A DNA stretch of 63,266 nt, filler included, from Conidiobolus incongruus B7586 (Eukaryota), in assembly GCA_000697335.1 (NCBI GenBank). It is 4 parts of 4 records of this genome, joined end to end, with 100 filler letters (N's around TTAATTAATTAA, not from the genome) between each part and the next. Parts side by side here need not be neighbours in the genome. Positions count along the whole stretch, not along the records: positions 1 to 27,489 come from JNEM01006067.1; 3 more parts are not named here. One strand, 5' to 3'. This document shows positions 2,427 to 27,589 of the stretch, one piece after another. Position numbers and translations under genes: made by a program. Position 1 is the stretch's first letter. Each line of letters begins with the position of its first letter. The notes under the pieces were generated by a model. That model worked only from the letters and a program-made list of their open reading frames with translations, was not told the origin of the DNA and made no database searches.

Positions 2427-5195
2427 TCATTTGTATGGATTCGGCTTGGAAATTGATTTACTTTCTCCACGGTTTTTGCTACCACTTTTATTATTACCCG
2501 CAATTTGATCATTTCGGCGGTTGCTATCATTACCATTATTGCTACTATCGCCATTACTGATCTCAGATCCATCAGTACCGCCATTGACGTTATCTTCACT
2601 GTTGCTATCTGATCCATCATTACTATGATTGTTATTATCGCTTTTGATATTGTGAGAGCCATTATTGCCGCTGGTGCCATTATCTCCTCCATTAACGCTA
2701 GTATCATTATTATCATTACTCTGATTATCAGTTTCATCATCGTCATCATTGTCATTTCTACCATGACCATCATTGCGAGAACCATGATTGCCTTTGGCAT
2801 TCTTATTATTGGATTCCAATTCAATTTCGGTCTTAATGACTTTCTTACCATGAGTTTTTACATCGATATCAACAACATCGTCTCCTCTTAAAACTTTAGT
2901 ATCCAAATCGACAGCAGCTTTATCTCCATTTTTATTGTTCCCGGTCTCACCATGACCATTGGGTCCATCACTGTCAATGGCATCTTCGACAGTGTCAACC
3001 ACTTCCTCAATAACATCTTTATCTTTACCTTTACCTTTACCTTGAGATTTCTTCGATCTAAGATTTGGACCATGTCCTCCATCTTCTAGAAGATCCAGGT
3101 TGACATTGATATCTTGACTGTCTTTTCCACTTTGATGATGACCTGACCTATCTTTAGCTTGGTCATTTTGATCCTTCAATAAGTCCGAATCGGCAACTTC
3201 ATTGACAGTTTTCTCAACTTTTTTAACAGCATGTTGAACTTCTTTCTCAACTTCTTTCACGACTTCTCCCTGGTTGATACCACTAACCTTATGTTTGGTA
3301 TTTGAGGTCTTATCTTTATTGGAACCACTCAATTCGATACCAACCAATTTTTCATCTTTGTTATCCTTTTTGTTTCCATGATTGCTGTCTTTATCCAGCA
3401 CAGTGAAATCAACATCAATGTCAACTACATCTTTGCTTCCTTTAGATTGATGATTTCCAGCGTGTTGAGGAAGTACGTTAATTTCTACATCAACCGCATC
3501 GTCATCACTCCTACCAGAGCCATGTCCGTTATTTCGAGTTCTGTCAAGGACATTAACATCTAAGCCAACTGCATCATTGCCTCCTTTAGGAGGATGACCT
3601 CCAGAATGTTGAGAAAGCACATCAACACCAACATCGACTACTTCACTGCCTTTCTTTCCGGATTGATTTCTATTAGCGTGAGTCTTGTCGAGGACATTCA
3701 CACCAAGGTCAACTACTTCGCTGCCATCCTTGGGTTTGTGACTTCCACTGCGTTGAGAGAGCAAATTGACATCAGCGCCAACTACGTCATTTCCTTTCTT
3801 TCTAGATTGATTTCCATCAGTATGAGTCTTATCAAGGACATTCACACCAAGATCTACCACATCATCTCCGTCTTTCGATTTCTTGCTTCCATTGTGTTGA
3901 GAGAGTAAATTGACATCAGCGCCAACTACGTCATTTCCTTTCTTTCCAGATTGATTTCCATCATTATGAGTCTTATCAAGGACATTCACACCAAGATCAA
4001 CTACTTCATTGCCGTTCTTCGATTTCTGACTTCCACTGCGTTGAGAGAGTAAATTGACATCAGCACCAACTACGTCATTTCCTTTCTTTCTAGCTTGATT
4101 TCCATCAGTATGAGTCTTATCAAGGACATTCACACCAAGGTCAACTACTTCATCTCCATCCTTCGATTCCTTGCTTCCATTGTGTTGAGAGAGTAAATTG
4201 ACATCAGCACCAACTACGTCATTTCCTTTCTTTCCAGATTGATTTCCATCATTATGAGTCTTATCAAGGACATTCACACCAAGATCAACTACTTCATTGC
4301 CGTTCTTCGATTTCTGACTTCCACTGCGTTGAGAGAGTAAATTGACATCAGCACCAACTACGTCATTTCCTTTCTTTCTAGCTTGATTTCCATCAGTATG
4401 AGTCTTATCAAGGACATTCACACCAAGGTCAACTACTTCATCTCCATCCTTCGATTCCTTGCTTCCATTGTGTTGAGAGAGTAAATTGACATCAGCACCA
4501 ACTACGTCATTTCCTTTCTTTCCAGATTGATTTCCATCATTATGAGTCTTATCAAGGACATTCACACCAAGATCAACTACTTCACTGCCATCCTTGGATT
4601 TCTGACTTCCACTGCGTTGAGAGAGTAAATTGACATCAGCACCAACTACATCATTTCCTTTCTTTCCAGATTGATTTCCATCAGTATGAGTCTTGTCGAG
4701 GACATTCACACCAAGGTCAACTACTTCATCTCCATCCTTCGATTTCTTACTTCCATTGTGTTGAGAGAGTAAATTGACATCAGCACCAACTACGTCATTT
4801 CCTTTCTTTCTAGATTGATTTCCATCATTATGAGCCTTATCAAGGACATTCACACCAAGGCCTACCACATCATCTCCATCCTTCGATTTTCCTGACCCAG
4901 TGTGTTGGGAGAGTATATTAACATCGGTATCAACCACGTCCTTACCTGATTTTGGAGCCGATGCTTCATGACGAGTGTTAAGAATATTAACATCACCATC
5001 GACCACGTTGCTTCCATCTTCTTTCGAAGCAGCGCCCTTCGTTTGATGAGTCTTACTTAGAACCTTCACATCGGCATCTACTACATCGTTATCCTTGGCG
5101 ACCGCTCTCCGAACGATACCACCTATCTCGGAATGAGTAATAGGTTTAGCCATCAGTGACATGATCAAAATGCTAAAAATAGTTGCTGAGCGCAT
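2427..5195 (-). CDS. 922-aa secreted tandem-repeat protein; largest member of the clustered family
   Basis: Long intronless ORF with a hydrophobic signal peptide, IVRR pro-site, ~25 VVDxxVNVL-type motifs and an N/D/G/S-rich tail. No Cys. TATA-like TATATAAAG ~90 bp upstream. Confidence 0.92.
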   Translation of the reverse strand: MRSATIFSILIMSLMAKPITHSEIGGIVRRAVAKDNDVVDADVKVLSKTHQTKGAASKEDGSNVVDGDVNILNTRHEASAPKSGKDVVDTDVNILSQHTGSGKSKDGDDVVGLGVNVLDKAHNDGNQSRKKGNDVVGADVNLLSQHNGSKKSKDGDEVVDLGVNVLDKTHTDGNQSGKKGNDVVGADVNLLSQRSGSQKSKDGSEVVDLGVNVLDKTHNDGNQSGKKGNDVVGADVNLLSQHNGSKESKDGDEVVDLGVNVLDKTHTDGNQARKKGNDVVGADVNLLSQRSGSQKSKNGNEVVDLGVNVLDKTHNDGNQSGKKGNDVVGADVNLLSQHNGSKESKDGDEVVDLGVNVLDKTHTDGNQARKKGNDVVGADVNLLSQRSGSQKSKNGNEVVDLGVNVLDKTHNDGNQSGKKGNDVVGADVNLLSQHNGSKKSKDGDDVVDLGVNVLDKTHTDGNQSRKKGNDVVGADVNLLSQRSGSHKPKDGSEVVDLGVNVLDKTHANRNQSGKKGSEVVDVGVDVLSQHSGGHPPKGGNDAVGLDVNVLDRTRNNGHGSGRSDDDAVDVEINVLPQHAGNHQSKGSKDVVDIDVDFTVLDKDSNHGNKKDNKDEKLVGIELSGSNKDKTSNTKHKVSGINQGEVVKEVEKEVQHAVKKVEKTVNEVADSDLLKDQNDQAKDRSGHHQSGKDSQDINVNLDLLEDGGHGPNLRSKKSQGKGKGKDKDVIEEVVDTVEDAIDSDGPNGHGETGNNKNGDKAAVDLDTKVLRGDDVVDIDVKTHGKKVIKTEIELESNNKNAKGNHGSRNDGHGRNDNDDDDETDNQSNDNNDTSVNGGDNGTSGNNGSHNIKSDNNNHSNDGSDSNSEDNVNGGTDGSEISNGDSSNNGNDSNRRNDQIAGNNKSGSKNRGESKSISKPNPYK
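3650..4950 (-). repeat. Coding tandem repeat: 144-bp (48-aa) unit, 8 near-exact copies, with a 288-bp higher-order period
   Basis: AAATTGACATCAGC recurs at 3763, 3907, 4051, 4195, 4339, 4483, 4627 and 4771. Units alternate between SQHNGS and SQRSGS variants. Confidence 0.95.
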
Positions 5196-8032
5196 AATAC
5201 AATGAAAATAATTAATTGATTGAAATGAATTAATGTATTAATGTATAAATGTATGATACCGAATATTTGTCTCTTATCACTACTTTATATACATACTACC
5301 TCAGCATATTATATCATATCTTATCATTTTAATTCTACGGAAATTATTATAATTTCATCAAATTTATTAATATTAAAATTTATTAATTTTCCCAATTCAA
5401 TTCCAAATAAAATTGGTTAAAAATTTGCAAATCTTTTCATATATAATTTCCTAACGGATTCGGTATTAACGGAAATATTGGTAAATGGAATTATGGAAAG
5501 TTTTTTTTATTCTTAACAGCAATATTGAGATATTTGATAGTTGTCATGGTGTGATTAGTATTCATTTTTGAAATTAATTATTATTAATGTAGCGCTTAGA
5601 GATGACTAATGTGGTTCATTTTAAGATTATACTTATTAAAATATTTTTTATTTGCTTGAAATTTAAGCGTTTTAAAAATAAACCATCATTATTGTTAGCA
5701 AGACCAGTTTAATATTTGAGCTTCCTCAAAATACAACAATACATATAATTTATAATCTTTAATGCTTTATATTAAATAATTCAAAAATCAGTCATAATTC
5801 CAACTGGTTAGTTTATATTGATTCATTTTGTTTTATATAATATATTAAAGGGCTGTTATATCCAAATTAGTTAAATATATTTTCGTCTACTAAGCTATGG
5901 ATAAGTAGGATTAAAAAACTATCAGACATTTATCAATCCAATATTGAATAGATTAAATTTAATATTCAGACTCTTAAATTATTAGTATTGAATGATTACA
6001 GAGATATATTTCAAATGTAAGACATTTAATCTGATATTATATTCATTGATACACAATAAATTGAATAAAATATCTTCTTTTGATATTATCAAATTAATTT
6101 GTAGCCATAATGATAAAGGCGAACAATTAGAATATTCGTTGACAAAATAATATGAAAAATTTAATTCGTATTATTATCAATTTAATAATCATGCAATATA
6201 TTGATAATTGAAAATTGATGAAATTTTTGGGAAAATGATATGAGAAGTGAATGGAAGTGTGTATCAAGATATAGCATACTATGGTATGAATGAAAAATAT
6301 TCATAACATCTTGATAGAAAGTATGAATTCATTTTAGTTGTAAAAATTGATGATTGTAGTCCACATATATTTGCTTAATATCTCCATTATCATCCAAGTT
6401 ATTACATCTAGTAGATATTACTTCATTCTTCACTTTTAATTATTCTCAATCCATAGAAAGTTCGCTAGCCTCATCCAAAAATGCTCCAAAGTTTCCAATA
6501 CTTTTCAAAGATCCTTGGTCGTCATACAACGGGCCATCAACAGGCTTCAGTACGATTTCCAAAAGACTTTCAGTGGCTCCCGTCTCACAATTGATATCCA
6601 AAAGAGTATTGTTCAGAGTTTCTAAGAAGATTACTGCGGTGTGATCTATACTGTATCTATAGTGACTCATCTATGTGGTGATTGATGTGGGTCCTTAGGA
6701 CCGTCAGAATGCTTGATTAGATGTTTGTGTGGTTTCTTTTTTTTTTCATTTTTTTATATCTTATACATCGCTAAGGTTTATCACTTTTCTTAGATTGATT
6801 TTGGGCTTATTTGCAAGTGTTAGCAATCAATTTAGCAGTGGTAGAGCATATATTTCATTAGTAGCCATGACTAAATATTTCAATTATGAAAAACTATAAA
6901 AGGTTAACAGATATAAAGTTTTAATAGAATCAATATACAATATTATTTTGAGAATGAATTTTGGTATTGGTTAAATTTGAAATAGTTTTGACATGTGGTA
7001 AATTGATTTATATATTAGGGCTGAAATAGGTTGTTGATGTTGGTTTATTGATGATTGTCAAATTTATGTTTTTGAGCTTATTCTTGTGTTTTTAAATAAT
7101 ATGAACTATAAAAGACAAATACCAATCTTAAGCTGTAATGCAAATTAGGCTGGTTTATATTAAAATTTTATTTATCTCTATCAACATTGATATTATATTG
7201 AAAGTTTAGTTTAAGTGCAGTATATAATACAAAGTTTTATATATTAAATGATGTAGATATTTATTCCATACAATTGTTGATTAATATAAACCATCTTATT
7301 TTATATCTTCAAAATTAAAAATTTATATAAATTGGATCTATTTCACACCTAGAAACATTTTTATAATTCTTTTGACATTTTAATTAATATTAATCATTAA
7401 TATAATGACTAATGATAGAGAAAATAACAAAAATATATTACTCTGATTAGCAATAGCTGTTATAATTTCATGATGATTGATAAAATTAATAAATATGAAA
7501 ATCATAAATAAAATAATAGTAATGTTGTATAATTGTTTTATTACATTGAATCAACAATTATAATAATATTTTTTACAGAATTATGATTAAAACAAAAAAC
7601 TGCTATATATGCAATAAGTCAGATAATTATTTATATCATGATTTCAGTAGTAGGTGAATATTATGATATTCAAAACAAAATTTCAAATCCCAGTATAGAT
7701 AAGTTAATAAAAATATTTTCTAACTTATATTATTTGATGGTTGAGCTTTATCAACCTATATTGCTTTATTTCAATACATCGATTAGAATTTCAAATGGCC
7801 ATAAACAGTGCTATCTTTATATATGAAAACATAACACTAAAACAATCCCCAACAATATTTCATTATTTAAAATTCAAACAAAAACTAAATATTCTAAATA
7901 AACCACACTTTAAATCCCATCATATCTCAAAAAATTCAATCATCGATGATAATCAAATTGATGGTATTAAGAATATAAATTATCATTAATCATTTTGATG
8001 GCAATCAAGATGTTAAAAATTTAACATTATAA

Positions 8033-8347
8033 ATGATGCGATATATTATGTTATTCACATTTCTCATTTATGTCGGTGATGTGATTTCAATTACATCTGG
8101 TGAAAATATCTGAGAGATTCAAAGAGGTGGGCTGATTGAAGATTTTGAAATAGTTCAACTGGGTACGAATATTGGTGACAAGGATGAAGACATTGAAAGA
8201 GGTGAACGATTGCAAAAACAGGAAAATAAGGGTAAGGAGGAATCTAATCAAGACACTTTTTCTAGAGTTAATATGAGTGAGGCTTATGTGATTGATTTGT
8301 TAAGTGCCCTTTTAGGAAATTACCTTGACTCATTGTTAGCATTTTAG
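8033..8347 (+). pseudogene. Decayed small secreted protein, probable family member
   Basis: MMRYIMLFTFLIYVGDVISITSGENI*EIQRGGLIEDFEIVQLGTNIGDKDED...: signal-like start, one in-frame TGA at 8111, an IVQLGTNI strand motif, and TATAAA at ~7974. Confidence 0.5.
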
Positions 8348-9178
8348 TCATTTTATTATGAAAATATGATTAACTGATTTTATAATATAGTGGTATCAGT
8401 ATTTATATTAAGTAATAGAATTATGAGGGCTAAAATGCATTTATATATCAATTATATTGAGCTTTATATATCACACCTCAACAATTAAAAAAATCTTTTA
8501 AATTTGCAATATTAAAATCCAATCCTATATTGTATACTAATTATCAGTATTTTAATAAATTTAATAGATTCATTTAAAAATTATATTAGATATATAACTC
8601 AATTTTATTGATCAATTCTGTCATAAATGGTGATGTTTTAAATGAAATACAATAGATTTAAATGCTTTGTAATCATATTATTGATAAAAAATCCAAAAAT
8701 TGCATGTAATTGGGTTCAAAATATGTAATCATCTAATGACCTTTAATATTTAATTTTATATATTTGATCATGAATTTTTATTAGATCAAAATTTTTATAA
8801 TTATGTTGAATTCTATTTTGAAGTATACTATATAATTTTTTGTGATGCATATATTCCAAAAAAAGAATACTCAAAGCATCCATTCGGAGCATTAATATAG
8901 CACATCATTCCAAGCTTTCAATATTATTAAGGAACTTTCAAGTAACCAAAATTTCCGTTAAAAAATCGTATGGAAAAATTAAATTGATCATTACTTATAA
9001 AACTTTTGAATAAAAGATAATTTTTAACAAATATCAATAGGCGTAAAATATCTTGATTTTTGTATAATTTTTGGAGAGAGTATATAAATCACATCTCTTA
9101 TCCAAGTTAATACCATCAAATTATATTTATTTAATATTTGATATTGGTTAATTTTTAATTTTAATATAATTTTGAAGA

Positions 9179-9820
9179 ATGCGTACTGCCACTCTACTCG
9201 CAATTTGGATGACTTCGTTGGTTGCTACACCAGCTATCCCTTCCAGGCACCCAAAAGTGCGCAGAGCTGAGAATAAGGCCAACGATGTGGTCAAAGCCGA
9301 CGTTGATGCTTTAAGCCACAAGAAACATGAGGATGATGATTTTGATGTGGACGCCATTTTGGATGAACTTTTGGCAGATATTAAAATTGATGATGTAAAT
9401 GGAAAAGACGGTGCTGTAGACAATTTAGTAGAAACTGTTGAAGGGGCTACTAAACTCGATCTAATCAAGAGTAGCAAAGTCAAGCGTCCATCCAAAAAGA
9501 ATAAAAAAAAAGATGCATTGGATGTTGATGTCACTGCTCTCGATGATCCTGCTGTTGCTGAGCTTGAAGTTGACAATAATCGTAAAAAGCTTGCTGAGCT
9601 TGATGTGACTTTTGAAGAAAAAGCGGAGGAAGTGGAACAATCAGAACAATCCGAAGAGCCAGAAGAGCCAGAAGTGTCAGAAGTGTCAGAAGAGCCAGAA
9701 GAACCCGAGGAAGTAACAGAAGAAACACCTAAGCCACCTCATCGCTATAGTAAGAAGAGACCTTACGGTAAGCGCAGGTCACATAAAGCAAAAAATCGCA
9801 GAGGCCTCAGGTATTTTTAA
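9179..9820 (+). CDS. 213-aa secreted family member with acidic E/P linker and basic K/R tail
   Basis: Signal peptide MRTATLLAIWMTSLVATP. VRR-AENKANDVVKADVDALS aligns with VRR-AVAKDNDVVDADVKVLS of the 922-aa protein. TATATAAA at 9081 and AATAAA at ~9881. Confidence 0.9.
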   Translation: MRTATLLAIWMTSLVATPAIPSRHPKVRRAENKANDVVKADVDALSHKKHEDDDFDVDAILDELLADIKIDDVNGKDGAVDNLVETVEGATKLDLIKSSKVKRPSKKNKKKDALDVDVTALDDPAVAELEVDNNRKKLAELDVTFEEKAEEVEQSEQSEEPEEPEVSEVSEEPEEPEEVTEETPKPPHRYSKKRPYGKRRSHKAKNRRGLRYF

Positions 9821-11062
9821 TTCTCAACTGGATAGCTTCAATTTAATTTTTTTACCAAAAATACTGAATCTAATTTAATCAATAAACATATTATTTTTAC
9901 AATAGTTTTTTATTCAAATGAGCTTATATAATATTTTATACATCTCATTACCAATTAATGTGTTTCATTATAGATAAAATACTCATAACATTTATCTTAA
10001 GTACTATAATTTGTGAATTCCTATAATTAACAATTTCTAATGTATTGTATTAAAAATTATAAAATCTTAATTACATTATAAAAATGATCAGTTATGAATC
10101 AAATAACACTTTTGAATTCCTTAATGTGATATAATATCCAATGATTCCCATTTATAAATATATAATTAGAAAATTATTACTAAATGTTAAAATTCAATAT
10201 ACATCATTTAACCTAAATATTATATACTATTAACATCAAAATTTGAATATTCTTTAATAAATATTAGTATAGATATTGAATATTCATTGAATAGTTCAAT
10301 AAAACCATGAATAATTTAAACACAAGAATAGTTCTTAATCGGATAAAATATTGATTATTTTAATATCTGTTAATCATCAAAAATATATTATTAAAATTTA
10401 TTCAAACTTTCAAACAGCTTTATACCATTAAATTAATATTAAATTTAACCAATATTAAGATTTAAATTTGAAATGTGCTGAGGTTGTATATCATATTACT
10501 TATTAATGACTATGTAAAATAACAATAAAGTTATTATTTTAATATAAATATATTGAGTAATTATAGTATTGAGATTGATATTTTTTATATCGAATCGAAT
10601 TACTTAAAAAATGGGTAAAATATATATAAACGTAATATGATAGGTTGAGTACTTGCATTTACTATAAATATAATCATTAATTATATGGTTAGTATTATTA
10701 CGCTAAAATTAAACAAGATAAATTTCTAAATCTTATTATTTCATTTTTGATGTTTGATTTTGTAAATATACCATAATTTACTATCTATTAATAACTACAA
10801 AATATCACTGAGAAAATTATTTATATATTATATAATCTTTTTTTATTCAAAATGAAGTGGAATCATTTACAGAATGATGGTTTGATAAAATTTCAAATAA
10901 GAATTACCATTTTATAGAGATTATTTTAATAGATAGTAATATATTGTCAAATTTAATATTAAGATTCCAGAATAGATCAATCTATTATTTGATCTGAATT
11001 GATAAGAATAATAATATCCCTGAGATAGTGATTATACTAATCATTTTATTATTTCATTAAAT

Positions 11063-11848
11063 ATGCGTAATGTAATCTTCATTTCATTGTTAGTTGCATT
11101 TACTGGAGCTATTCAAGCAGCACATCATCATACCGGATTAGTTGGCTGTGAAGCATTGACTAAGGGAGACCTGGCAAATGTTAGTGTAAAGGTTGACAGG
11201 GACAGCAATCTGATCAAAGATGAAGATAGAAATAGCGGCTTGGATGTAGATAACCTTTTGAAGCTGAGTAACTTGAATGATGGTCTCATTGATCTCAATG
11301 ATTCGGAAAATAAAGATGATAGTATTGTCGAGTACTTAGCTTTGGATTTAAATGATTTTGATGATGTGATGGCCTTGTTAAATCTGAGTGAGAAGGATTA
11401 CCTTAACATTTTCCATTCGAGATCCGAAGCTATTCAGTATAGTAGTAACGAAAGTCAGTAAAAGAGTAGTGCGGAATGATTGAACATGAAAGCTGATGCT
11501 CTTGAAGGTATGATGTCGATGATATCAAGCTCGATAATGATTTTAGAGAGATTGCCGAAGTCAAAATTTCGCTTGGTAATGTTAATACTTAACAGGATTC
11601 AGGAGATGATAATGATGAGGGAGATAAAAAAGAAATCAAAACCTAAATCACTTTGATTACGTTGTAAGCCTCCAAAGAAAGGGCACTATTATAAACCCAA
11701 TTCTCATCACCAGTATAGCGAATATGGAAGGAGGAGTCCTAATGGTAGATATTTTTTACAACCTTCTTTTAGACCAGGACCAATGTATGAACCTGACTAC
11801 GGACGCCCGATTGGGTATTCTATGCCGTATCCACCAAGTTATCGTTAA
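11063..11848 (+). pseudogene. Disrupted secreted family member (132-aa ORF, then stops and frameshifts)
   Basis: Signal peptide present. Past the stop at 11461 the sequence still encodes LNMKADALEG / YDVDDIKLDNDFREIAEVKISLG (family module), an acidic then basic stretch, and a P/Y/G tail ending PYPPSYR* at 11848. The truncated 132-aa product could still be made. Confidence 0.7.
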
Positions 11849-13327
11849 TAATCATATCTTATATTCACATTTTAATTATCAAATAATTCATAACAATATA
11901 TATTGAAAGTTAGATGTATTATTTCTAATCTACAGATTTTTAACTTTTCTAATATTTGATACTTCCTTGATTGCTATAATAATTGATAACCCTAACTTTT
12001 TGATTAATTTTTTGTTGAGGTATTATAAATAACGGTATTAAATATTTCAAAAAGAATTCTACCAACAAATTCATTAATTTATATTGATATATTTCAGGAA
12101 ATATCTTAAAATTTTAAATATGATATTTAAATTTGTTAGGTTTTTATATTTGTCGCTTAATTTATGATTTATGAAGTTAATATACATCAATACTAAATCT
12201 CTAACTAATATAAACACATATTTCTTATTGATAATTGTTTTGTATTTTTGAAACATAGAAATAAATTGTTTTCTGGCAAAAAAATCAATAATGTATTATG
12301 TAATTCGTGAATTGAGTTCAGATAGATATTACAATCCTTGTTTTCAAAATCATTTTTATCCCAATAAATAATTTAATTTCTGAATACATTGAATAATATC
12401 TTGCTAGTATTAAAAAATTATAGTATACATAATTTTGTCATAACTTCGTCCAATTAAGCTATATTTTAAATAATATTTTATATTAATTACGATTATACAA
12501 ATTAATGAGATATACATTATTTCAGATTTATTAAGATAGATCTTTAGAAAAAACTAAATAATTTACTATATTTAAAACTTAACATCCCATATATTTTTAT
12601 TAATTTTATTTTAGTGCTTGGTTTATTATATTGCGGTTCTACCGATTGCTAGTAGAAGGTTAATAATAGATAAAGAAGCGGCTTGTTTATGGTCTGTTTG
12701 GTAGTTTAGGTTAGAGTGTTTTATTGGGTTTGTTAAGGGTTTTATGGACTTCGCAAAAGACCAAAGGTGATGGTGCTAATGTATCTTTTATAAAATAATT
12801 GTCGGCTGTAGGTAATGTAAAGTAGTATATTGGGTTGCTAGAAGAATGAGATCTTGGAGCGGTGTGATGAGTCTTTTGGTGGTAAGACTCCATAAGGTAA
12901 TAGATCGCGAGATGAAGTTGGTGGAGTGAGTGACCATTTATATAGCCACAATATATATTGGAATAAAATCAATGTATGTTTAAATGAAAATTATTTGAAA
13001 ATATGATTTAATGGGGTTACTTCATGTTCGAAATATACTTAATAACAAAATATTAAGAAAATATATTCAGGCTTCATTTTGAGAAGTCAATAAAATGAAT
13101 TCAATTACTGAATATCTGATATAAAACTAAATAGATTTTTTAATATATTCTTAACTGCAACTGTGATTAGTGCGAATTAGAGTTACCAATTCAGTTTAAT
13201 TCGTTTTATAGTAAGTTTCAAATCTGCAGTAGAGTTACAAATTAGATTTCAACATAATCGAAGTCTTTTAAAGCTAAATTAAGCTAATATCAAATTATTC
13301 AATGTTAATTATTTTTGATACTTAGTT

Positions 13328-13750
13328 ATCCGTGGAATTACTTTATCTCCTCTTCTAGTTGCCATTTTTTGCAAGCTCTTCCAATGAGTATCAGAGGTCC
13401 TTAATGTGGAGAGATGGTGACAATAAAGTACATACATTGGAGTTACTCCATTTTTTGGATGTTGATCCCAATAATTATGAAATTGATGACATTGAAGAAA
13501 AGGTTGAAAAATCTCATGAATCCAAGGAACATCATAAGCATCATAATGATCTATTGGAAGGAGCTTTCAATGTTTTGTTATTACACATAGTGAAAACCAC
13601 CAAGGTAAAGGTGATAAAGGAATTGAATTAAATTCGCAAATTGAAAATGATAGCGATTTCGTGAATGTCTAGTTAAATGAAATAATAAAAAGGTTCTCAA
13701 ACTTAAAATTGATGATGATGAATCGGGAAATAAGGAGCTTAGTACAATTA
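13328..13750 (+). pseudogene. Disrupted secreted family member
   Basis: IRGITLSPLLVAIF (ATC in place of ATG) ... SLMWR, then after a frameshift GDKGIELNSQIENDSDFVNV*LNE/NNKKVLKLKIDDD, which matches KDKGIELRTDVEDEDDILDIGLDDNEEEVVDV of downstream paralogues. Confidence 0.7.
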
Positions 13751-14978
13751 AAAATAATTATTGCATCAATTGGGTACTCAAAATAGATGGTTCAAGTCTA
13801 AACTTAGACCTGAACCGCATTTCTAATCTGAATCTGAAAGATCAGTTTCCAAAATACCATGCACTTTAATGACTTTTCAATTTTCAATCCTATTATTAAG
13901 ATTACTTATTTTTTCTCGGATTATAAGGCCATTTTAATAATTTTACAATTTTATTGACCATTCAGCATTTAAATGGTAATAAATTATTTTCTATATTTCA
14001 TACAATTTTTGTGATATAAATTAATCCAATACATTTCCTTTTAAATATCTAATATTTATATTAACAATAATTGAATACAAAAGTTAATGCTCTAATTTAA
14101 TATTGATAATAATCAAAATTAATGGAGACTTTATAAATTTCGATTATATGACTGAATCTGCAAAAGGTATTCTTTATTATTAATAAATCGTTGTATCCAA
14201 TTCAATAAAATTAAATTATATTTGAGAAAAAATTCAATTACATTCAGATAACACCTGATATTTTGTACATGATAATAAAAATGATATAAAAGTTCTTTAA
14301 TAATAGCTATTATTATTTTAGTTTGAATAAATATACACCCTATATTAGAATAAAAATGAAATAAAATCTAAATCATAATTTCATCCAATTTAGACATTGA
14401 AAATACTCTTTATTGAATCATTGATATACCATTTTCAATTGATTGAAGTTTCATCTATAACCCCAGGTTATTTGAGTATTTCAATATTTAATCAATAAAA
14501 ATGATCAAACACCCAAAAAATTAATTATAGATAAACTATTATAATTTTACTATTTTTCTATTTTGATTATTAGGAAGAATCAATTCAGTTCCAATTTATT
14601 AACCAATTTCTATATTGAGTCAATTATCCACATGATAATAAATATTAAAGATTAGAAGATATCGAGATAAAAAATCAGTATATTTCAGTATTATTTTAAA
14701 ATCGGTAATAAAATTTTAAATGATTAATTATATTATATAATATTATATGCAATTTCCCCAAAGATAATTGTTTAATATTATCACTAATATTGAACCATTC
14801 AATATTATTAAATGTTCATAAATTTGTCATATTTGAATATCATAAACATAGATCCTCCAATCAATTAATTGATATCGTATAAACAATTCAATTGGATTCT
14901 TGAGATATATAAGCAGATTTTAAGTACCGTAAAAAATTAAAATATTGCAATTCAATCTATATATATATATATTTAATA

Positions 14979-15749
14979 ATGCACACTACTACATTATTCA
15001 GTTTACTCCTAACTAGTTTAATTGCTACTCCCATTACTCCTTCGGAACATTCATTGATACGTCGATTAGACCTATTGAATAGGTTAATCGAAGTAGATGC
15101 TTTGGATGCCCTTGATATTGGAGGCATTACTGGTCGTGAATCCCGTCACCCTCGCGAAAAAGAAGATGGAATCAATTTGGATGCTAGGATCGAAGAGGAT
15201 GAAGATTTGGCCGAGCTTGAATTAGATGATGAAGCTAATGATATTGCTGGCATTCAGATCTTGGAGGAAGAGATACCTGAAGAGCCCGCTGAAGAGCCAG
15301 AAGAGCCTGAGGAATCTGAACAACTCGAAGAGTCTGAAGAGCCTATGTATGAAGATGATGATGAATATAATGATGAATATGATGATGAATATGATGGCAA
15401 ATACGGTCGCTATCCTGGAGGATATAACGACCGCTATGATGGAGGCAGATATCGTAGCTATGACGTTGGATACAGTGGTGATTACGGCAATGGTTACTAT
15501 GATAACTATAATGGTGGTTATAATGGAGATTATGATAATAGAATGTATCCAGGATATTTCAAAGATTATAATGGTGGTTATCGTAACGGCTATAGCGGTG
15601 GATATGGTAATGGTTATAACGGTGGATATGGTAAGAGCTATGATGGAGGTTATGATAATGGCTATAGCCGAGGCTATAGTGACAGCAATGGTTACAATGG
15701 AGGATATGATCGATACAATGGTGATTATGGTCCATATGGTGAATATTAG
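14979..15749 (+). CDS. 256-aa secreted family member with Tyr/Gly/Asn/Asp-rich tail
   Basis: Signal MHTTTLFSLLLTSLIATP, SLIRR pro-site, family module, EEPEE linker and (G/N)GY repeats. TATA-like element at ~14906. Confidence 0.9.
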   Translation: MHTTTLFSLLLTSLIATPITPSEHSLIRRLDLLNRLIEVDALDALDIGGITGRESRHPREKEDGINLDARIEEDEDLAELELDDEANDIAGIQILEEEIPEEPAEEPEEPEESEQLEESEEPMYEDDDEYNDEYDDEYDGKYGRYPGGYNDRYDGGRYRSYDVGYSGDYGNGYYDNYNGGYNGDYDNRMYPGYFKDYNGGYRNGYSGGYGNGYNGGYGKSYDGGYDNGYSRGYSDSNGYNGGYDRYNGDYGPYGEY

Positions 15750-16669
15750 TACTATCCAACTCCATCTAATCGGTTTATCAACAAAGACTTTGATTATACT
15801 TCAATCATCCAACTTAGATATTTTATATCTTTAAATATTCATTGAATTTCTCTTTTAATTACTTTTATAATAAATAGCATAATTATTCACTTCTCAGAAT
15901 TAAATCATGTAAAACCAATTGCCTTCTTTTTTTGAAAAGAAAAAACTATCATTAAAATCATTTTTAGGCCTTATATATATATATATATATATTAATAATT
16001 TACTTGGATAATTTGTTTATTAATTTTATTAAAATCTTTAAATTAATAAATATTCCAATTGACATTTATTTTTGAATCAATATGTTATTAATGATAACTA
16101 TATTCATATAATTTTTTGATATTAATGAGTATAAAAAATTCACTATCCTTACAATATTAGATTTTGTGGTATAATTTATCTGATTTATATAAGCTTTATA
16201 TTAATCAAATTTATATCCCTTTATGAATATCAATTAAATATAGAGTTGTTCTTTATTCGATCTGATTTTTGGATTAGGTTTTTAGTAATTGAGTTAATAA
16301 ACTGAGTTGAATTCAATGTTAATTATTGTGTTGGAATCATAAATAATATTAAAAAAAAAATAACATTAAATTCTAAAAATATTTATAATTCGATATCTTA
16401 CAGCACAATAAACAATATTGATATAAACACTACAGAATTGAAAAAGAGTAATTTGGTGACTTAAAAATTGACAATTTTTATATATGTGGAGTTGTTAGCA
16501 AAACAATAGATTTGATCTAAAAAAATAAATCTCCAAATATATAATAATTATATAATCAATGATTGATGATTTGATAACAAAATAAGTCATTTGAATTTTT
16601 ATTAATATTGATCGACAAAGTTAGGATTACAAATTATCAACATTGAAATGGTTGCATTTTTATATATAA

Positions 16670-19600
16670 ATCTGATGTGAGGACTAAAGTCATCATATTA
16701 TTTACTCATTGCTTTAATTCATCTTATATTTATTGTTTAACTATATGCATTCAACTATTTTGTTCGTTCTATTAGTTTCTAGTTTAATTGCTACCCCCCT
16801 TCCTGCTCCAAGTCATGCTTTGACTCGTCGTATCGATGCTTTGAAAGGATTGGACTTGGGAGATTTAGGTCTCATAAATGATATCTTGAAACTTGGTGAA
16901 AAACATCCTAAAAAGCAGCATCCTTCAAAAGATAAAGGAATTGAGTTGCGAACTGATGTTGAAGATGAAGATGATATATTAGATATTGGCCTGGATGATA
17001 ACGAAGAGGAAGTTGTTGATGTAGCTGTTTTGGAAGAAGAGCCTGAGCAGCTGGATGAACCCGAAGAATCTGAAGAATCTAAAGAGTCTGAAGATTCCGA
17101 AGAATATGAAAGTGAAGATTATGAAGATTATGAAGATTATGAAGGCGAGTACGATGAAGATGTATACGATGGCCAGAGGTATGGAAAGAAATCCAATGGC
17201 TATAAAGGAGACTATGGCAATGATGGTTATGATGGGAGATATGACTATCATTATAATGATGGACATGGTGGCTATAATCGCGAATACGATAGCTATGATG
17301 GAGAGTATGATGAGTATTACGGCGACTATGACGGCTATGATGGTGATTATCGCCAATACAATTTATACTGAATTTATGAAATCCAATCTGATTTAGAACA
17401 TTCACTAATGTATGTATATAACAAATAACATCAACGTATCATAGTTCAATGCATAGCTCATTCAATATATATTATTTTTCATTTTAGAATCACTAATTGA
17501 ATAAAAATCATTAAATTTGAAATTCATTTAATTATCCTTTTATTGTTGGTCAATTTCAAGTTTCATAATTTATAAAATGATATACATCAAATGAAATCAA
17601 AATGGTATAATGAATTTATTTACAGCTACATCAACATCACTTGATTTGATTTGATACAACTCTTATCCTATGTTCGATGTTTAGTTAGCATCGATAAAAT
17701 ATAAATGAAATCTTATTACAAATAATGGGCGTCAAATTATACCTTGAAATTATTGAAAACATAAATGTATTTCTAAAAATTTATTATTACCGATATAATC
17801 ATATTATTACTATTTTGGATATTTTTGAATCTACTTATATTAAGTATTTATACATTTTTATTCTCATTTTTGAATCAATTACTTTAAAATTTTTAATTAG
17901 AGCTAATTAAATGAATATATGAACTTTGGCTTATTATATTTTGAAATTTTCAAGTGTATGTTATATTTATTAGTTTTATTAGATAAATTTGAGATTTTTC
18001 AGTCAGTTGAGCTCCTGTTATAACAAAATTAGGACAGGGCCACAGAAATTTTTGAATTTAATGTTTTTGCATTTATATGAGTATTAGAAATTATAGTCAT
18101 TTTATTAATGAGGTAAAATTAGCAAATTTTTTAATATATAAACTATACTGTAATTTATAATCAATACCATGATAAAAAGTAAAATAATCAAGTTTTTAAG
18201 AAATACTACTCATATTTATTTGTAGAATTGTTGTAGGACAGTTTCTTTTGAAATAATGAAAGTTGAACCACATCTATTTGTATATCAAAGATTTTTATTC
18301 CAATTCTTTTAAAGGTAATATTTTATCAAATTTAATTGAATTTATTTTTGTATTTTATTAACTTATTTTTGATGGATTGAAAGCATATATTTCAACTATC
18401 CTTATATTTTAACTTTTTTATAATGATAGGTTTTCAAATGATAGTTATTATAACATTGAATTTCTCAATGCAATTAGGTTTGATTCAATATGAAACTTCT
18501 AATAAAGATATTACTTTTTATAAAGTAATTTTTTACTGTACTTAATCTTATCAATTAAATTTTATAATGAATAATTAATAATTGTAATACCTTTATATTC
18601 ATTATAAAAAGTCACTGTAAACTGGTATAACAATCTCTATTATGATTATTATATATTGGGTACATAATAATCCAATATCAGAATAAATAATCAAAAAATA
18701 CCAATTATATTTCACTAATTCATCCAATTCAAAATAGAGTAGATCCTTTATAGAATGAGAAATATCAAAACATTTGTCATTATTATCTCACTAATACTGC
18801 TCCTTAATAAGTAGTAAATAGTTTCAAATAAATGTTGTATATGCTTGATATAAGTAAAATTTTATTCTCTCTTGATCCTAGATAATAAACTTAAATCAAC
18901 ATATTGATGAATATATAAGAATATAGTGTATGAATATTGAAAATAGTTTATTTATCAAATAGAATATAATATTTATTGGATTTGATTAAACTTACTAAAC
19001 ATAAATTTTATATTACATTGACCAACTTCATAAACTAACTAATGTGACAATTAAAATGAAAAATTATAAATTGATGATCTCTATTGAGATTATCATTTAA
19101 TAACAAGGATAGCATTTATTGTTTTGATAGTATATTTATAGTAAATATCGATATAGAAATTAAGTGATTATGAAAGATAATTAATGTGCTATTGTTCTTA
19201 TTATAATCTTTCATGATTGGTGAAAATTTATACACAATCAACTATATACAGCTTGAACATTGAATTATGTAAATAAATGATCGTGATTTAAATTGGGATC
19301 AACATTGATAAAGGAAATTCAATTTATAAATTGTAAACATCTCAATAAATAAAGGTTATATATAAATGAGATCTGATGTAAGGACTAAAGTCATCATATT
19401 ATTTATTCATTGCTTTAATTCATCTTATATTTATTGTTTAAATATATGCATTCAACTACTTTGTTCGTTCTATTAGTTTCTAGTTTAATTGCTACCCCCC
19501 TTCCTGCTCCAAGTCATGCTTTGACTCGTCGTATCGATGCTTTGAAAGGATTGGACTTGGGAGATTTAGGTCTCATAAATGATATCTTGAAACTTGGTGA

Positions 19601-19862
19601 AAAACATCCTAAAAAGCAGCATCCTTCAAAAGATAAAGGAATTGAGTTGCGAACTGATGTTGAAGATGAAGATGATATATTAGATATTGGCCTGGATGAT
19701 AACGAAGAGGAAGTTGTTGATGTAGCTGTTTTGGAAGAAGAGCCTGAGCAGCTGGATGAACCCGAAGAATCTGAAGAATCTAAAGAGTCTGAAGATTCCG
19801 AAGAATATGAAAGTGAAGATTATGAAGATTATGAAGATTATGAAGGCGAGTACGATGAAGAT
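16670..19862 (+). repeat. ~490-bp near-identical direct repeat (16670-17162 and 19371-19862)
   Basis: Direct comparison at offset 2701 shows only a handful of mismatches. Confidence 0.93.
16745..17371 (+). CDS. 208-aa secreted family member with Tyr/Asp/Gly-rich tail
   Basis: First ATG at 16745 (the ORF track starts at an upstream TTG). Signal peptide, ALTRR, module and YD/YG tail present. TATATATAAA at 16661. Confidence 0.9.
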   Translation: MHSTILFVLLVSSLIATPLPAPSHALTRRIDALKGLDLGDLGLINDILKLGEKHPKKQHPSKDKGIELRTDVEDEDDILDIGLDDNEEEVVDVAVLEEEPEQLDEPEESEESKESEDSEEYESEDYEDYEDYEGEYDEDVYDGQRYGKKSNGYKGDYGNDGYDGRYDYHYNDGHGGYNREYDSYDGEYDEYYGDYDGYDGDYRQYNLY

Positions 19863-20024
19863 GAATACGATGGTCATAGATATGGAAAGAAACCCGATGG
19901 TTATAAACGAGGCTATGACAGTGATGAATATAACCGAGGATATGATTACCGATACAACAACAATTATGACGGATATGATTATGAATATGACGGAGATAGT
20001 GGTGATTATGAAGACTACAATTGA
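19446..20024 (+). CDS. 192-aa secreted family member, close paralogue of 16745-17371
   Basis: First ATG at 19446. The first ~139 codons are almost identical to the previous gene; the tail has diverged. Confidence 0.9.
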   Translation: MHSTTLFVLLVSSLIATPLPAPSHALTRRIDALKGLDLGDLGLINDILKLGEKHPKKQHPSKDKGIELRTDVEDEDDILDIGLDDNEEEVVDVAVLEEEPEQLDEPEESEESKESEDSEEYESEDYEDYEDYEGEYDEDEYDGHRYGKKPDGYKRGYDSDEYNRGYDYRYNNNYDGYDYEYDGDSGDYEDYN

Positions 20025-22599
20025 GAATATGCCCCTTAAAGTAGATATTATTATAATCAAACTCATATTAATAATGATTTAGAGGATATATTTTTTTACC
20101 ATTTCATCCAATCGTGTTTAAAAATAATAAATATTATTTTACGTTTAAAATAGCTTTATATCTTATAATCATAACAAAACTTTCTTAATATGATATATCA
20201 CTGATTTCGATTTATACTAATCATTAGTGGATTTAAAATTGCTAAAAAATTCAATTGTCATATTTTCAAATAACTTAAAATTTCTGAAGATATAATAATA
20301 TTATAACAAGACAGGAACCTCTAATTTCATCAAGTATCCTTATTAAATCAACTCAATATAATGATCATTTTTCCCTCGCATACAGATTCGCTTACTCTTT
20401 CTTAGATTTGCTATTCAGCGAAGCCACCACAGTAACTTCTAAACCACTTTACCCGACATACATTATAAAACCGGAATTTGGATGATTCAAATCAAGATCA
20501 GCCTTATAAGGGCCCTCTCCCCTAGTTGACAAAATCAATAAAATTCCCTTTTACCCATCTTATAGCCAAATATCCCGGACCACCCCTCTGTACTAATTCT
20601 GATCAAGACAATGCTTTCCCAAGTAGTGCCAATATCATGATTTCATTAAAAAAACAAATTTAAAATTAATAATTGTTTAATAAATTGAATGAAATTTAAA
20701 AATTGTGATGATTTCAATTTGAATGTTATATTCAATTCCAAGTTTTCATTAATAAGATTATAATATAACATTTATATATATCATGGAGTCAATACTTTAT
20801 AATGGTCAGGTGAAACGATTCAAATATACATTTTTCTAATTTATTTATTATATATATCAAGTAACAAATGATAATATAGTTTTTTTTCGAAATTAATAAA
20901 ATGATTTTGATATTTTGGATTTAATCCACCTACAGTTTGTTTTGATGATGTTATATTTCAGGTTATGATGCTCAATTATTTCTTATATCCCCTCCATATA
21001 TCTTTATACTTTAATATATTATTATGAAATTTATCTGATATTGTCACTTAATGTTGTATAAATAATTTTATTTAATATTTTCTTCCGTGTACTTTTTATT
21101 AAGTGAATTTAAATATTTTGATATTTAAGCTATAGATTCTTTACAAATACTATTCAAAAAAACTATAATAATTTTCTAATTATTAAATTGCGATGAATTG
21201 ATCATTAGGTATTGAAGAATATAATAGATATAAAACGTTCATCTTAATATTTTGTCTAGACATATTCCTAATAAATGTAACCTAAATTTGTAAATTTAAA
21301 AAGATATTTAATTCAAACTCACAGATAATGGAATTTATGATAATTTATAGAGTGAATTGAATATACCATTTTTTTACTTCAAGGGACTTGAACTTACTGA
21401 TAATCGTTTTATAGTCACTAAAATTTCATTTTTATTATAAACATATTGATGCGTAATACAACTGATTAATTGTTTATATTTATTATAATGTTAATATTAA
21501 TCATATAATTATCGGTTTAATTCTCATTCTTTTTATCATTTGTAAAACTCATCTTTAGCATATTCGAACCCTTACTAAATTTTTCAAAGGTTAACATTGA
21601 TAATTTCAGAAAATATTAAAAATTAAATATTTTTGTTTATATTCTGTTGCTTTATCAATTAAACTGTACCAACTATTTATTAAACGGTTATATTATCAAT
21701 TATCTCTCAATTTTATCCAACTTCCAAAAATTCTGGACAGTTAGGTTTTAATGATTTTAGCTTTCATTAACATAGATTATTCAATTCAAATATTGCATTT
21801 TACACTTATTCATAATAAAATAATATTGTTTAAACTAATATAAGAGCCTTTGAGTTAATCTTTATATTTCGTCGCTTTGAACTTTTGTTTTTTTAATTGT
21901 GTCAATTATATTTGATCAATTTTTGGTTCTAATTGAGTATTTAGTTAAATAGCGAGAATATTCAAATGTTAATTGACCGGTGAGGTCTACTTTCGCGTTC
22001 AACCAGTAAACAATTTTTATTATTTCAAGGGTTTATATAATTTCTAACCAAATTACCAGTTAAACAATCGCTAGTTATGAATTACCTTGGTTTTTAAAAC
22101 GAGATGTTGAAGCGTGAAGATTGTGTAATTATTAATAAAATAATTCAAATATCATAATTGATTTTTTGAGTAATATTTTTTGGGATTATAATCAAATTAA
22201 TATATATCTCTAAAACTTAAACTTATTCCTTTGTATTACACAGCTTTAAATCTTTCAATAGCTCTTTATCAAAATTTTCGATTAATCTGAAAATCATCGA
22301 ATATTTCATAATCAACCAAAATTAGTCATTATTAATTTCTATTTGAAAGATCAAGCTTTTCTAAAATTTCAAAAATGATTATCAAAGCGAAAGTTTTAAG
22401 GATTAATCACTGAATATTATTATGGTAATAATACTAAATTCAAAAAATATAATATAAAATATATTCTATTTGATTTAAGGCTCTTATTTTTTATTTTTGG
22501 GATTTATTATTATTAATGATATTACCCTTATTCAGATATCTTTTGACGTTTCGAAATTAGCATGTCCTAAATATCATTTAATAAATTTGTTTGACAAAC

Positions 22600-25250
22600 A
22601 GCTACCTTCTGAGTTGTAATATATAGTTATCCCTAAAAAGCCGCCTAGAAGACCTAAAAAGGCCAATGCAACTGTTAAATCTGTAAAACTTGAACAAGCT
22701 GCTCAGACTGTGCAATCTGTAGATATTCCCAAAACAACTGTTCTGGAGGTTGCTTCAGCTCAAACCGACTCTATTTAAGATCACGCTCCTTGTATTTTAT
22801 CAATATCTGAGGAGAATAACATAGAAATAGTATATGTATTAAAACATTATGGGTTGAATAAAGGTTCAGTTGAACAACCTTCAAATTTTCAAATTACATA
22901 AGCTTACACTGAAATAATAGATATTAATAGTCTCAAGAAAACAAGCCAAAAGGAGTTGACTTAACTATGATTGAGACCATTTTATATGCTCCAATTAAAT
23001 CAATACATCCATTTCTTACCAAATTTCATACTGTTAGATATCAGCTGACAATAACATTAAATGGAAGACTGGATTTAAAAATAGAATGCTCACCAAAACC
23101 TTTTCTACCAATGCATCCTTTCATCCTTAGTCCTCAAAAAAAGAAAGAATTGGCTGAAGTATAAAGAAAGGAAAAGGAAAAAGAAGAGGTAAAGTGATTA
23201 GCAATGATTCTGGGAATGAATAGAGATAATATCATCAGCATATTTTTCAGCTCAACTCGCTGCACAAAGTTTTCTTCATCAAAGCGACGCACTCCCAGTC
23301 CCGCTTCAGTCCTCCTCTTGGGCCCCCGGCTGCTTTTTAGTGATGAGCATATACTATATATTAAAAAAGCGAACTTGAATGAATACTTTCCTGTGAAACA
23401 TTGCAATATTTCAGAAATTCAAAAATCCTATAATTTGATTTTGCTCTCTCAGTCACACGTTTTAAGTAAAAGTGAAACTCCAGCAGGACACTTCATTTTA
23501 CTTGATATGCATGAGTGGTGGGACAATATTATGGCTCATGATAACTAGCTATCTCTCGCATCTAATTCTCACCAAAGAACTTGCTTCATCAAATATACAC
23601 CTAGTTTTCCTCACGAATTCCAGTCCAACTTTAATACAATTAGACTTGTAGAAATATGATAAAAACAATAAAAAATATAAATTCAACCGAAGAGGATAAT
23701 GAATATGACGAAGCCTTTATTTACTCAGGTTTGGAAATATATCGCAATTTTATTGATTATGGCTGTAAAGGCCTAAATTTCGCAAGAAATCTGAGAAGGG
23801 GAAGGGAAATACACCTAGAAAGAAATATAAGATTAACATTGGCGTTTCTGAGTCTGAAAACGTATCTCACGATTGGATCAGTTTTAATAATGATTTGATC
23901 CTTGATGGCCCTGCTCGAAGCGGGAAAAATATGACGGTACACCCATGTTTACACCCTATAGAATTCCAAGTCATTGAACTACACCCAAGAATGCTGCAAT
24001 TTTCTAAGGAGGTACAATAATGGATTAAAGAAGTTATTAATACACACTTTATTGGAGGAAATGGGAAGAGCATTTTAGTAAATTTCATCATTCACGCCAA
24101 TATTTTGCTTCACATTGACCACAATTCCTGGTAAGTTCTTATTCGGACTGCTAAAGGATCCAAAAGACATATCATTTTATTATCCAATTCTGGGCTTCAA
24201 ATACTTGTTAATTGTAAATTAAATATTCAGCACACCTTATCCCTAGAATTAATCAACTCTGATACTCTTACACCTTATATTCATTATATTCATTATACTC
24301 ATTATATTCATTATATTGCACATAGAGATAAGATTATACTAAACAAATCTGATAGTTTAACTGTATCTAATACTATGATTCTAGATATTAGTGAAGTATT
24401 AAATCAACTCGAATCGGTTTGTAAATTGATTCAATATCAATATATATCCAAGTCAGCCAAAATCATAAAATTGAAGATACTTTATCAAGGATGGGAATTG
24501 GACTAGATGCAGACCATGTTGAATCCGACTACGAAGACAAATTAGCTATATATGATTATATTCCTAATATCTGGAATGCTATTTGACAAGATTTTGATAT
24601 TGAAAGTGCAAAATATGCCAAATTAACGGATACTGAGATGACCATAGAAGAATGAGCCACAGTTTTGAATATAAAATCCAACTCTGATATCTGGACATCT
24701 AATACTAAGATTAATTATGGAGTATTGAAGCCTGAAGTAGGCTTAAAATCAAACACGTTATTAAATTGGCTAGAAAAATACGACCCCTGATCTTCTAAAT
24801 CAGCATATTCAGCCACTTTTCATTGTACTTTCCTAATAATATCGCATACCCTTGTGATGAAAGCGGCATTTGGAACTGCTACTCTAGTCATCCCATTATG
24901 CCATTATTAGTAATTCAAGTAACAACTTCTCCTTAATCAATCACAGCCACTTTTGGATCTTATAAACTTGAAACGCAAAATTACACATTATCATACACTT
25001 AAAGATGACATGACTAAACTAAATAATACACATTGGTGGTCTACTTTTGATTCTTACTTGGATTATATAATAGCAGGTAAATATCATTGGTACACAATAT
25101 TTGATAGAGGTATGAGAAGACCCCAGTTGTATTGTCGCAAATTTAATTTAAACAACGATGAAGAAGTATTATTCAAAGATTTAACTTTTAAGCAGCCAAT
25201 TGACAGCCGAGATGATCAATAACATCAGCATTGTACTTTAAATAAAAATT
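22600..25250 (+). mobile_element. Possible highly decayed non-LTR retrotransposon remnant
   Basis: Locally less AT-rich with broken ORFs. Weak fragments occur in LINE order: GMN...VFFIKATH (endonuclease-like), NVSHDWI (RT-like), GFKYL, and a Trp-rich end. No intact catalytic motif seen. Confidence 0.3.
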
Positions 25251-25713: not shown

Positions 25714-26391
25714 TTATTTCTTTTTACCTTCCTTTCTTCTAACAACTTCATCACCAATGAAAATACCTTTACCATTGTAAGGTTCGGGTTTCTTCCACTT
25801 GCGTACTTTGGTAGCAAAAGCCATCAATTTTTGCTTATCAATACTTGTCATAATGATCTTAGTAGGGTTAGGAACTTTAACTTGAATACCCTCAGGAATA
25901 GGTTCATTGATAGGATGACTATAACCACATTTGAGACCAATAGTATCTCCTTCGAGCATAGCACGATAACCAACACCACTCATTCTAAGACTGATGGTAA
26001 AACCTTCGGTAACGCCTTCGATACAGTTTGAAATTAAAGCACGGGTAGTACCCCACATAGCTTTTTGGTGCTTAATAGAAGGATCTTCAACAGTCACCTT
26101 AAGTTCATGATTACCAGCCTCCGTTACTTCCTTGACAAAATCGAGTTTGACAAAAGGGACGATGGGAACTCTTTGTTCACCCAAGGGTCCTTTAACAGAA
26201 AGCATTTTAGCTTCACCATATTTCAGGTTATTGGGAGAAATTTCGTCTAATAAAGTGATAGAAACGTCAGAAGGGTAATATAAACTAGCTTTTCCAATAT
26301 GACTGAGTTGAGGAGAAAGGGTAGAAAAACTTCTCAAACAAGTTTGATTAAAAGATTTAGTTAATGTAGTTTTTAATAATGAGGAGATCAT
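25714..26391 (-). CDS. MRPL6: Mitochondrial ribosomal protein uL6m
   Basis: Presequence followed by SHIGK, VKGPLG, MWGTTRALI, GVGYRA and PEPYNGKGI. Confidence 0.96.
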   Translation of the reverse strand: MISSLLKTTLTKSFNQTCLRSFSTLSPQLSHIGKASLYYPSDVSITLLDEISPNNLKYGEAKMLSVKGPLGEQRVPIVPFVKLDFVKEVTEAGNHELKVTVEDPSIKHQKAMWGTTRALISNCIEGVTEGFTISLRMSGVGYRAMLEGDTIGLKCGYSHPINEPIPEGIQVKVPNPTKIIMTSIDKQKLMAFATKVRKWKKPEPYNGKGIFIGDEVVRRKEGKKK

Positions 26392-27489: not shown

Positions 27490-27589
27490 NNNNNNNNNNN
27501 NNNNNNNNNNNNNNNNNNNNNNNNNNNNNNNNNTTAATTAATTAANNNNNNNNNNNNNNNNNNNNNNNNNNNNNNNNNNNNNNNNNNNN
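27490..27589. other. Assembly gap spacer N44-TTAATTAATTAA-N44
   Basis: The same 100-bp spacer with six-frame stops occurs three times; artificial. Confidence 0.97.

Follow-up and report, generated by a model that had tools for sequence, protein, structure and literature searches.

A cluster of cysteine-free, secreted-type beta-strand protein genes in Conidiobolus incongruus B7586 and its possible role in a surface fibre or matrix

A cluster of five related open reading frames (ORFs) in Conidiobolus incongruus B7586 raises the question of what kind of extracellular system it encodes. The window, i.e. the whole stretch of DNA analysed here, is 63,266 nucleotides (nt) long with filler included, and the cluster, read from the DNA sequence alone, occupies positions 2427 to 20024. 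The ORFs form a gene family that displays tandem birth and death and selection on beta-strand sequence. The explanation that fits best, held tentatively, is a surface fibre or matrix system that does without hydrophobins and arose by convergence, such as a spore or hyphal coat, comparable to curli or to the repellents of Ustilago. The intact genes are as follows.

2427 to 5195, minus strand: g1, single ORF of 922 amino acids (aa), with IVRR (RR at 29–30)
9179 to 9820, plus strand: g4, single ORF of 213 aa, with signal, KVRR and strands
14979 to 15749, plus strand: g7, single ORF of 256 aa, with signal and LIRR
16745 to 17371, plus strand: g8, single ORF of 208 aa, with signal and LTRR
19446 to 20024, plus strand: g9, single ORF of 192 aa, a recent duplicate of g8

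None of the five proteins contains Cys. All show an N-terminal hydrophobic stretch (best 11-residue Kyte-Doolittle mean 2.1–3.1), which is followed by RR at residues 29–30 in g1 and 28–29 in g4, g7, g8 and g9, and all end in a polar C-terminus without a hydrophobic tail. Secretion signals and glycosylphosphatidylinositol (GPI) tails were judged from hydropathy and composition only. The original prediction of five intact, intronless, Cys-free genes without a GPI-like tail and with RR near residues 29–30 holds for each of them, with RR at 28–30. Its N-terminal motif fits four of the five; at position 5, g8 has I instead of T. The first 31 aa are related in all ten pairs (p ≤ 0.004, with shuffles preserving the hydrophobic block), whereas the signal of an unrelated secreted gene of the window, used as a control, gives p values of 0.06–0.44 with the family, i.e. 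it is not related. The five proteins are likely secreted. The sequence TATATAA is situated at −73 to −98 in all five intact genes; it is found in none of three relic candidates, one of three other genes, and 26 of 264 intergenic windows, the scan covering 130 nt per gene and the intergenic background windows 60 nt. I/M-rich ORFs that overlap the genes in other frames or on the opposite strand were rejected as shadows of the repeats.

g8 and g9 differ at two positions within the first 420 nt and have a common upstream region, but their tails are unlike. The segments 16660–17247 (g8) and 19356–19948 (g9) share a 95% identity across 593 bp, of which about 85 bp lie upstream. Judged from this alignment, the pair is a recent duplication or conversion with turnover of the tail.

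The regular alternating strands of the original prediction are strong only in g1; the small members show them within a three-strand module of about 40 aa. g1 displays 24 repeats at residues 38–600, each consisting of a 9-residue strand and a polar spacer of 14–17 residues. Two strand types alternate, A (VVGADVNLL) and B (VVDLGVNVL), giving 12 units of 48 aa, and because of this alternation the DNA shows a 144-bp period.

3637 to 4947, minus strand: 144-bp tandem array, 9.1 copies with 88% matches, the core of the predicted beta-solenoid

Strand position 2 is V in 24/24 repeats and position 6 is V or I in 24/24; position 7 is N in 21 of the 24. Over the eight central 48-aa units of the 12, the variable codons of the strands are all synonymous (6/6), whereas 15 of the 21 spacer codons that vary alter the residue. 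The Fisher test gives p = 0.003, a value that is approximate, the strand boundaries having been set by the analyst and the units sharing ancestry. This pattern shows apparent purifying selection, with the strand sequence being what selection keeps in g1. The repeats are followed by an amphipathic helix (641–668), a g4-like C-terminal region, and an N/D/S/G tail; the three-strand module of g1 is at 755–796. Three pairs of 44-N gaps in the window (27490–27589, 42724–42823, 57533–57632) suggest a short-read scaffold, so the number of 144-bp repeats in g1 may be misassembled.

Structures were predicted with AlphaFold2 (AF2) from single sequences without an alignment. Residues 30–270 of g1 (4386–5108), which contain ten repeats, gave an all-beta model in the form of a two-sided beta-solenoid, with a predicted local distance difference test score (pLDDT) of 67.5 and a predicted template modelling score (pTM) of 0.68. 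No capping domain is predicted at the N-terminal edge. The structural neighbours of the model are parallel beta-solenoids, adhesins and antifreeze beta-helices included. Five repeats of the Escherichia coli CsgA fibril cover model residues 8–234, therefore about 48 residues per rung, and from the repeat period together with this five-rung alignment we infer a g1 rung of about that size. The model lends moderate support to a beta-solenoid for the regular repeats, and g1 probably forms a wide one; the fold of the small members is unsupported by the models. A predicted complex of four copies of one 48-aa unit, also without an alignment and with an uncertain chain fold, scored 0.02 and is evidence neither way.

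The small members combine the module with linkers and tails of strong charge. In g4 the module is at 108–148, followed by an E/P/S linker (net −16) and a basic tail (net +11 in 24 aa). g7 has the module at 59–98 and an acidic linker, and its tail of 133 aa (net −14) consists of Tyr and Gly at 26% each, among other residues. g8 has it at 60–99, an acidic linker, and an 88-aa tail with 27% Tyr (net −21), and g9 ends in a 72-aa Tyr/Asp tail (net −20) unlike that of g8. The tails of g7–g9 have a Tyr share of 26–27% and a net charge of −14 to −21. Linker and tail of low complexity make up more than one third of each small protein. Tyr/Gly-rich, oppositely charged tails resemble animal glues and cross-linked coats. 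The module of three alternating strands gives p values of 0.006–0.035, which rest on a pattern chosen after inspection of the data. The C-terminal region of g1 is collinear with mature g4 (p = 0.004), which gives g1 the appearance of a g4-type protein whose first strand has been expanded. Alignment to g4 is also significant for g7 (p = 0.001) and g8 (p = 0.011).

Decayed copies and other relics are found between the intact genes.

11063 to 11850, plus strand: decayed paralogue d5 with stops and frame changes, no RR and no TATATAA
13328 to 13870, plus strand: decayed paralogue d6 with no ATG and several breaks
8033 to 8350, plus strand: GC-rich relic with a signal-like start, a possible third decayed copy, not significant
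6420 to 6740, minus strand: GC-rich relic with a 73-codon ORF, family membership not significant

Relics were scored with tolerance of frameshifts against five family segments, with 40 codon shuffles each. d5, which keeps a remnant of a basic Tyr/Pro-rich tail, and d6, whose module remnant is closest to g8, score above all 40 shuffles. For 8033–8350 and 6420–6740, 8/40 and 5/40 shuffles score as well, so family membership is not significant for either; the ORF of the latter has no match in Pfam or NCBIfam. Two of the three decayed copies proposed originally are thereby confirmed and the third, at 8033, is not. No recognisable unrelated gene is seen between the members, also as proposed, and GC-rich relic islands are present at 6.4–6.7, 8.0–8.35 and 12.6–12.9 kb. 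Two islands, 12610–12940 and 20365–20630, have a GC content of 0.38–0.41 and broken frames, and neither of their strands resembles the family in the shuffle test. These may be relics of other genes or mobile elements.

How far the family extends was followed by profile and word searches. Pfam and NCBIfam gave no relevant family match for the cluster proteins. The sole match above the cut-off, TFIIB (PF00382), a helical cyclin-fold repeat, on g1 (31.8 bits, cut-off 23.6, E = 1.5e-7), was rejected as noise summed over the repeats, since no stretch passes alone and the model of the repeats is all-beta. Word searches of 5.8 billion proteins yielded no homologue among 78 candidates for g8 residues 1–105 (lengths 114–364 only) or among 5509 for the N-terminal family profile A1 (lengths 34–270 only), and the g1 repeat profile A2 gave no match at E ≤ 0.001 in 1.84 billion representatives. 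g4 was found in 0/515 metagenome contig stretches and the g1 repeats in 0/107 prokaryotic genome candidates. The Atlas shows nothing for g1 and a single unnamed row of 0.76 for g4; a proteasome subunit at E = 0.05 is the only match among PDB sequences, and exact look-ups matched none of nine window proteins. In a detection benchmark using random substitutions without indels, and scored before the word filter, which was outside the simulation, the repeat profile recovered 38/40 homologues with 24 repeats at 40% identity and 3/40 at 30%; the small-member profile recovered 11–31/40 and 0–9/40, respectively. By these searches the family is an orphan down to about 40% identity, in a collection that includes C. 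coronatus proteins; relatives that are more distant or lack annotation may exist. The analysis supports the idea of a beta-strand family of secreted type that had gone unrecognised. The searches for its range found no homologue, and the libraries searched no characterised family.

A literature search, with subscription papers and bioRxiv supplements outside it, found no description of the family, and four of its repeat motifs are absent from the Le Marquer supplements searched (PMC6339444). The mitochondrial L6 gene at 25714–26391 shows 89% identity to a protein in a 90% cluster with C. coronatus KXN73333.1, the next match being Entomophthora muscae at 52%; by this gene the source is a Conidiobolus near C. 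coronatus NRRL 28638 but distinct from it. A search anchored on L6 showed three loci at 46–66% identity, none of which is Conidiobolus by identity, and none of 19 C. coronatus KEP accessions adjoins L6 KXN73333.

The mechanism suggested by the preferred surface fibre or matrix explanation would have four steps. The proteins would be exported and then trimmed by a Kex2-type protease at the single RR after the signal. g1 is predicted to coil so that each rung takes up one unit of 48 residues. The V/A/L faces of the A and B strands would pack into the core, and D/G/N ladders and K/H/S/G loops would be exposed. The uncapped, Cys-free edges of the solenoid might then stack end to end into fibres, by analogy with curli. 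Finally, and this is the weakest step, the small paralogues could join through the three-strand module or by charge, where the basic tail of g4 and the acidic Tyr-rich tails of g7–g9 would produce a matrix that is hydrated, sticky and possibly cross-linked through Tyr. By analogy, the family likely works like curli or repellents. In favour of this explanation are the selection on the strands and their conserved positions, the all-beta model with its solenoid neighbours, the TATATAA common to all intact genes, the opposite charge signs of the tails, and the divergence of the g8 and g9 tails after a near-identical duplication. Context in its favour comes from C. obscurus, whose spores are described as having a rodlet layer beneath the mucilage (PMC3364958, citing Latge 1986), and from a survey that reports a strict hydrophobin in one of six Zoopagomycota genomes (bioRxiv 2022.08.19.504535). 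The amyloid-like idea of the original prediction gains a predicted beta-solenoid and purifying selection on the strands from this analysis, but the best geometric match of the model is a soluble protein, SufBD. Its multi-subunit polymer of a scaffold and small subunits, the location on spores and the replacement of hydrophobins are at this stage hypothetical.

Several observations weigh against a fibre of this kind. SufBD, the top match in VIA-align (Z = 10.4, root-mean-square deviation (rmsd) 3.8, 163 aligned), is non-amyloid, and the CsgA fibril lies within 1 Z of it at a much higher rmsd (Z = 9.5, rmsd 8.3, 110/111 aligned); for repeats, moreover, a Z below about 13 may mean a common arrangement only. 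Foldseek with the g1 model gave nothing at E ≤ 0.001, its weak rows being mostly beta-solenoids with FapC (E = 0.23) and CsgA included. The five AF2 models, made without an alignment, span pLDDT values of 33–67.5, the other four having 59–33. In a model of g1 residues 494–802 (pLDDT 43.7) the last five, degenerate repeats are unfolded beside the helix at 641–668, and the shared module is a weak hairpin only and not folded. The predicted outer face of the solenoid is hydrophilic, unlike a water-repellent rodlet, and the small members carry a strong negative charge in their mature cores (net −12 to −18). g7 and g8 show no significant similarity to the C-terminal region of g1 (p = 0.07 and 0.38). 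The family is undetected even in C. coronatus, a poor fit to a universal rodlet protein unless divergence is very fast. Entomophthora muscae, in addition, has a hydrophobin candidate according to the same preprint, whose main text does not name Conidiobolus, and C. obscurus is a distant relative of the source fungus. The boldest form of the fibre explanation is that Conidiobolus independently invented a eukaryotic curli-like system, in which a 24-strand beta-solenoid fibre assembles together with small subunits whose Tyr-rich tails are of opposite charge, and so provides entomophthoralean ballistospores with their glue and with a rodlet layer free of hydrophobins. In this full form it is unlikely.

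Curli CsgA/CsgB is among the closest known systems: secreted, Cys-free, with imperfect strand repeats and clustered genes for major and minor subunits. It has a two-sheet beta-solenoid, a fold that g1 may share, the match of the model to CsgA being tied with that to SufBD. Curli extend by docking of open solenoid edges, and an acidic curlin with an isoelectric point of 2.98 still polymerises, as described in PMC10192328. However, the curli rung is 23 aa versus the 48 aa inferred for g1, the rmsd is high, and there is no sequence homology; the cluster proteins would also use a eukaryotic secretory route, and they have long charged loops and tails. The curlin motif N-x-Psi-x-Psi-x-Q and the QX10Q kernel have no match in any of the five proteins, nor is there a curlin Pfam match. 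Pseudomonas FapC/FapB is likewise a solenoid amyloid, in which imperfect repeats form longer layers and a minor subunit acts as nucleator (PMC12459412), but has three repeats versus 24 in g1 and no sequence match, and its Foldseek row is not significant. Hydrophobins, defined by eight conserved Cys (PMC3364958), are alike in the proposed job (surface coat, rodlets, adhesion); they are secreted proteins of ≤20 kDa, whereas the cluster precursors, without Cys, are of 22–97 kDa and hydrophilic in composition. GPI adhesins would display a hydrophobic GPI signal and an S/T-rich stalk, and here the C-termini are polar and the S+T content is 8–13%. No chaplin or rodlin domain was found in Pfam or NCBIfam at E ≤ 1 or 10, libraries which presumably include both families. 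The wide beta-helix of SufB/SufD, the best geometric match, is a cytosolic Fe-S scaffold with 4–10% identity and has the architecture alone in common with g1. By these sequence features the family is not a hydrophobin, a curlin or a GPI adhesin.

A soluble best match also suits a non-fibrillar matrix or adhesin, a less probable explanation. Here g1 would be a rod-like beta-helix that stays monomeric, and the small members would be polyampholytes, for the most part disordered, of a spore mucilage or glue. Instead of a cross-beta polymer, cohesion would come from the pairing of charges, the binding of Ca2+ or water, and cross-links between Tyr residues. The adhesins and antifreeze beta-helices among the structural neighbours, the low-complexity segments with their opposite charges and high Tyr, and the shared module, unfolded in its model, are all consistent with this, and entomophthoralean conidia with a mucinous coat are described (PMC9026835). 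However, the proteins show nothing recognisable as an anchor, a stalk or a ligand-binding domain, the S+T content is low for such a role, and the N-terminal edge of the solenoid has no predicted cap.

An improbable alternative is a precursor of the type of Ustilago maydis Rep1 and the fungal KEPs, in which g1 is cut at KK in each 48-aa unit to release amphipathic repellents or bioactive peptides. Rep1 is likewise fungal, with a signal peptide and repeats of similar unit length, and forms a hydrophobin-independent surface amyloid. The KEP rule (Umemura 2020) is a signal peptide and at least three repeats of 8–100 aa between KR, KK, RK or RR (PMC7329392). By a hand check, g1 appears to fall under this loose computational rule, and under no stricter one, through KK in 9/9 core B-to-A spacers, invariant among eight units; g4, g7, g8 and g9 do not. 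Peptides of 48 aa would also be inside the Rep1 range of 34–53 aa (PMC3133707). Rep1 itself, however, is cut at canonical Kex2 sites between its repeats, and g1 has no KR at all and RR only at 29, before the repeats, and at 893. KK is a lesser Kex2 site (PMC6339444), and only 11 of 23 spacers contain any dibasic pair. The cluster is multigenic with charged tails and has no sequence match to Rep1 or KEPs, and none of the four small members contains repeats that could be released.

The tandem cluster with relics, the fast-diverging tails and the orphan status would also suit host-directed secreted proteins (decoys, shields or effectors) in birth and death under host pressure, and C. coronatus is listed as an animal pathogen. 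This is very unlikely, given that the low-complexity charged, Tyr/Gly-containing tails and the repetitive solenoid look structural and there is no Cys-stabilised globular domain. Least probable of all are very divergent members of a described family beyond the reach of the searches, for which the low benchmark recovery at 30% identity and the mere 14 bits of g1 with the small-member profile leave some room, but no relevant Pfam, NCBIfam, PDB or Atlas match was found and the diagnostic motifs of hydrophobins and curlins are absent.

Other features are found in the window. Just past the cluster, 22600–24500 shows raised GC and coding-like fragments. Two intronless, secreted-type genes of 1147 aa on the plus strand (31214–34657 and 37944–41387) carry a PD40/TolB-like propeller and an amidohydrolase; these have near full-length bacterial matches at 34–38%, on Bacteroidota plasmids, and horizontal transfer followed by tandem duplication is possible from the sequence. 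A 71-bp stretch upstream of g1 (5350–5420) shares a 79% identity with 34655–34725, just after the first amidohydrolase gene, and may be a small dispersed repeat. One tRNA (44540–44611, plus strand) is the sole Rfam match.

The chemistry of the adhesive by which entomophthoralean spores attach to hosts is described as unidentified (PMC8588673), and hydrophobins are scarce in the phylum. The cluster supplies named candidates for the entomophthoralean spore coat or adhesive, which are easy to express and come with a concrete prediction of structure. If the preferred fibre or matrix explanation is true, secreted beta-solenoid amyloids would have arisen independently once more, this time in an early-diverging fungus, and the rung of this one, wider than that of curli, and its interchangeable charged tails would be of interest for biomaterials.

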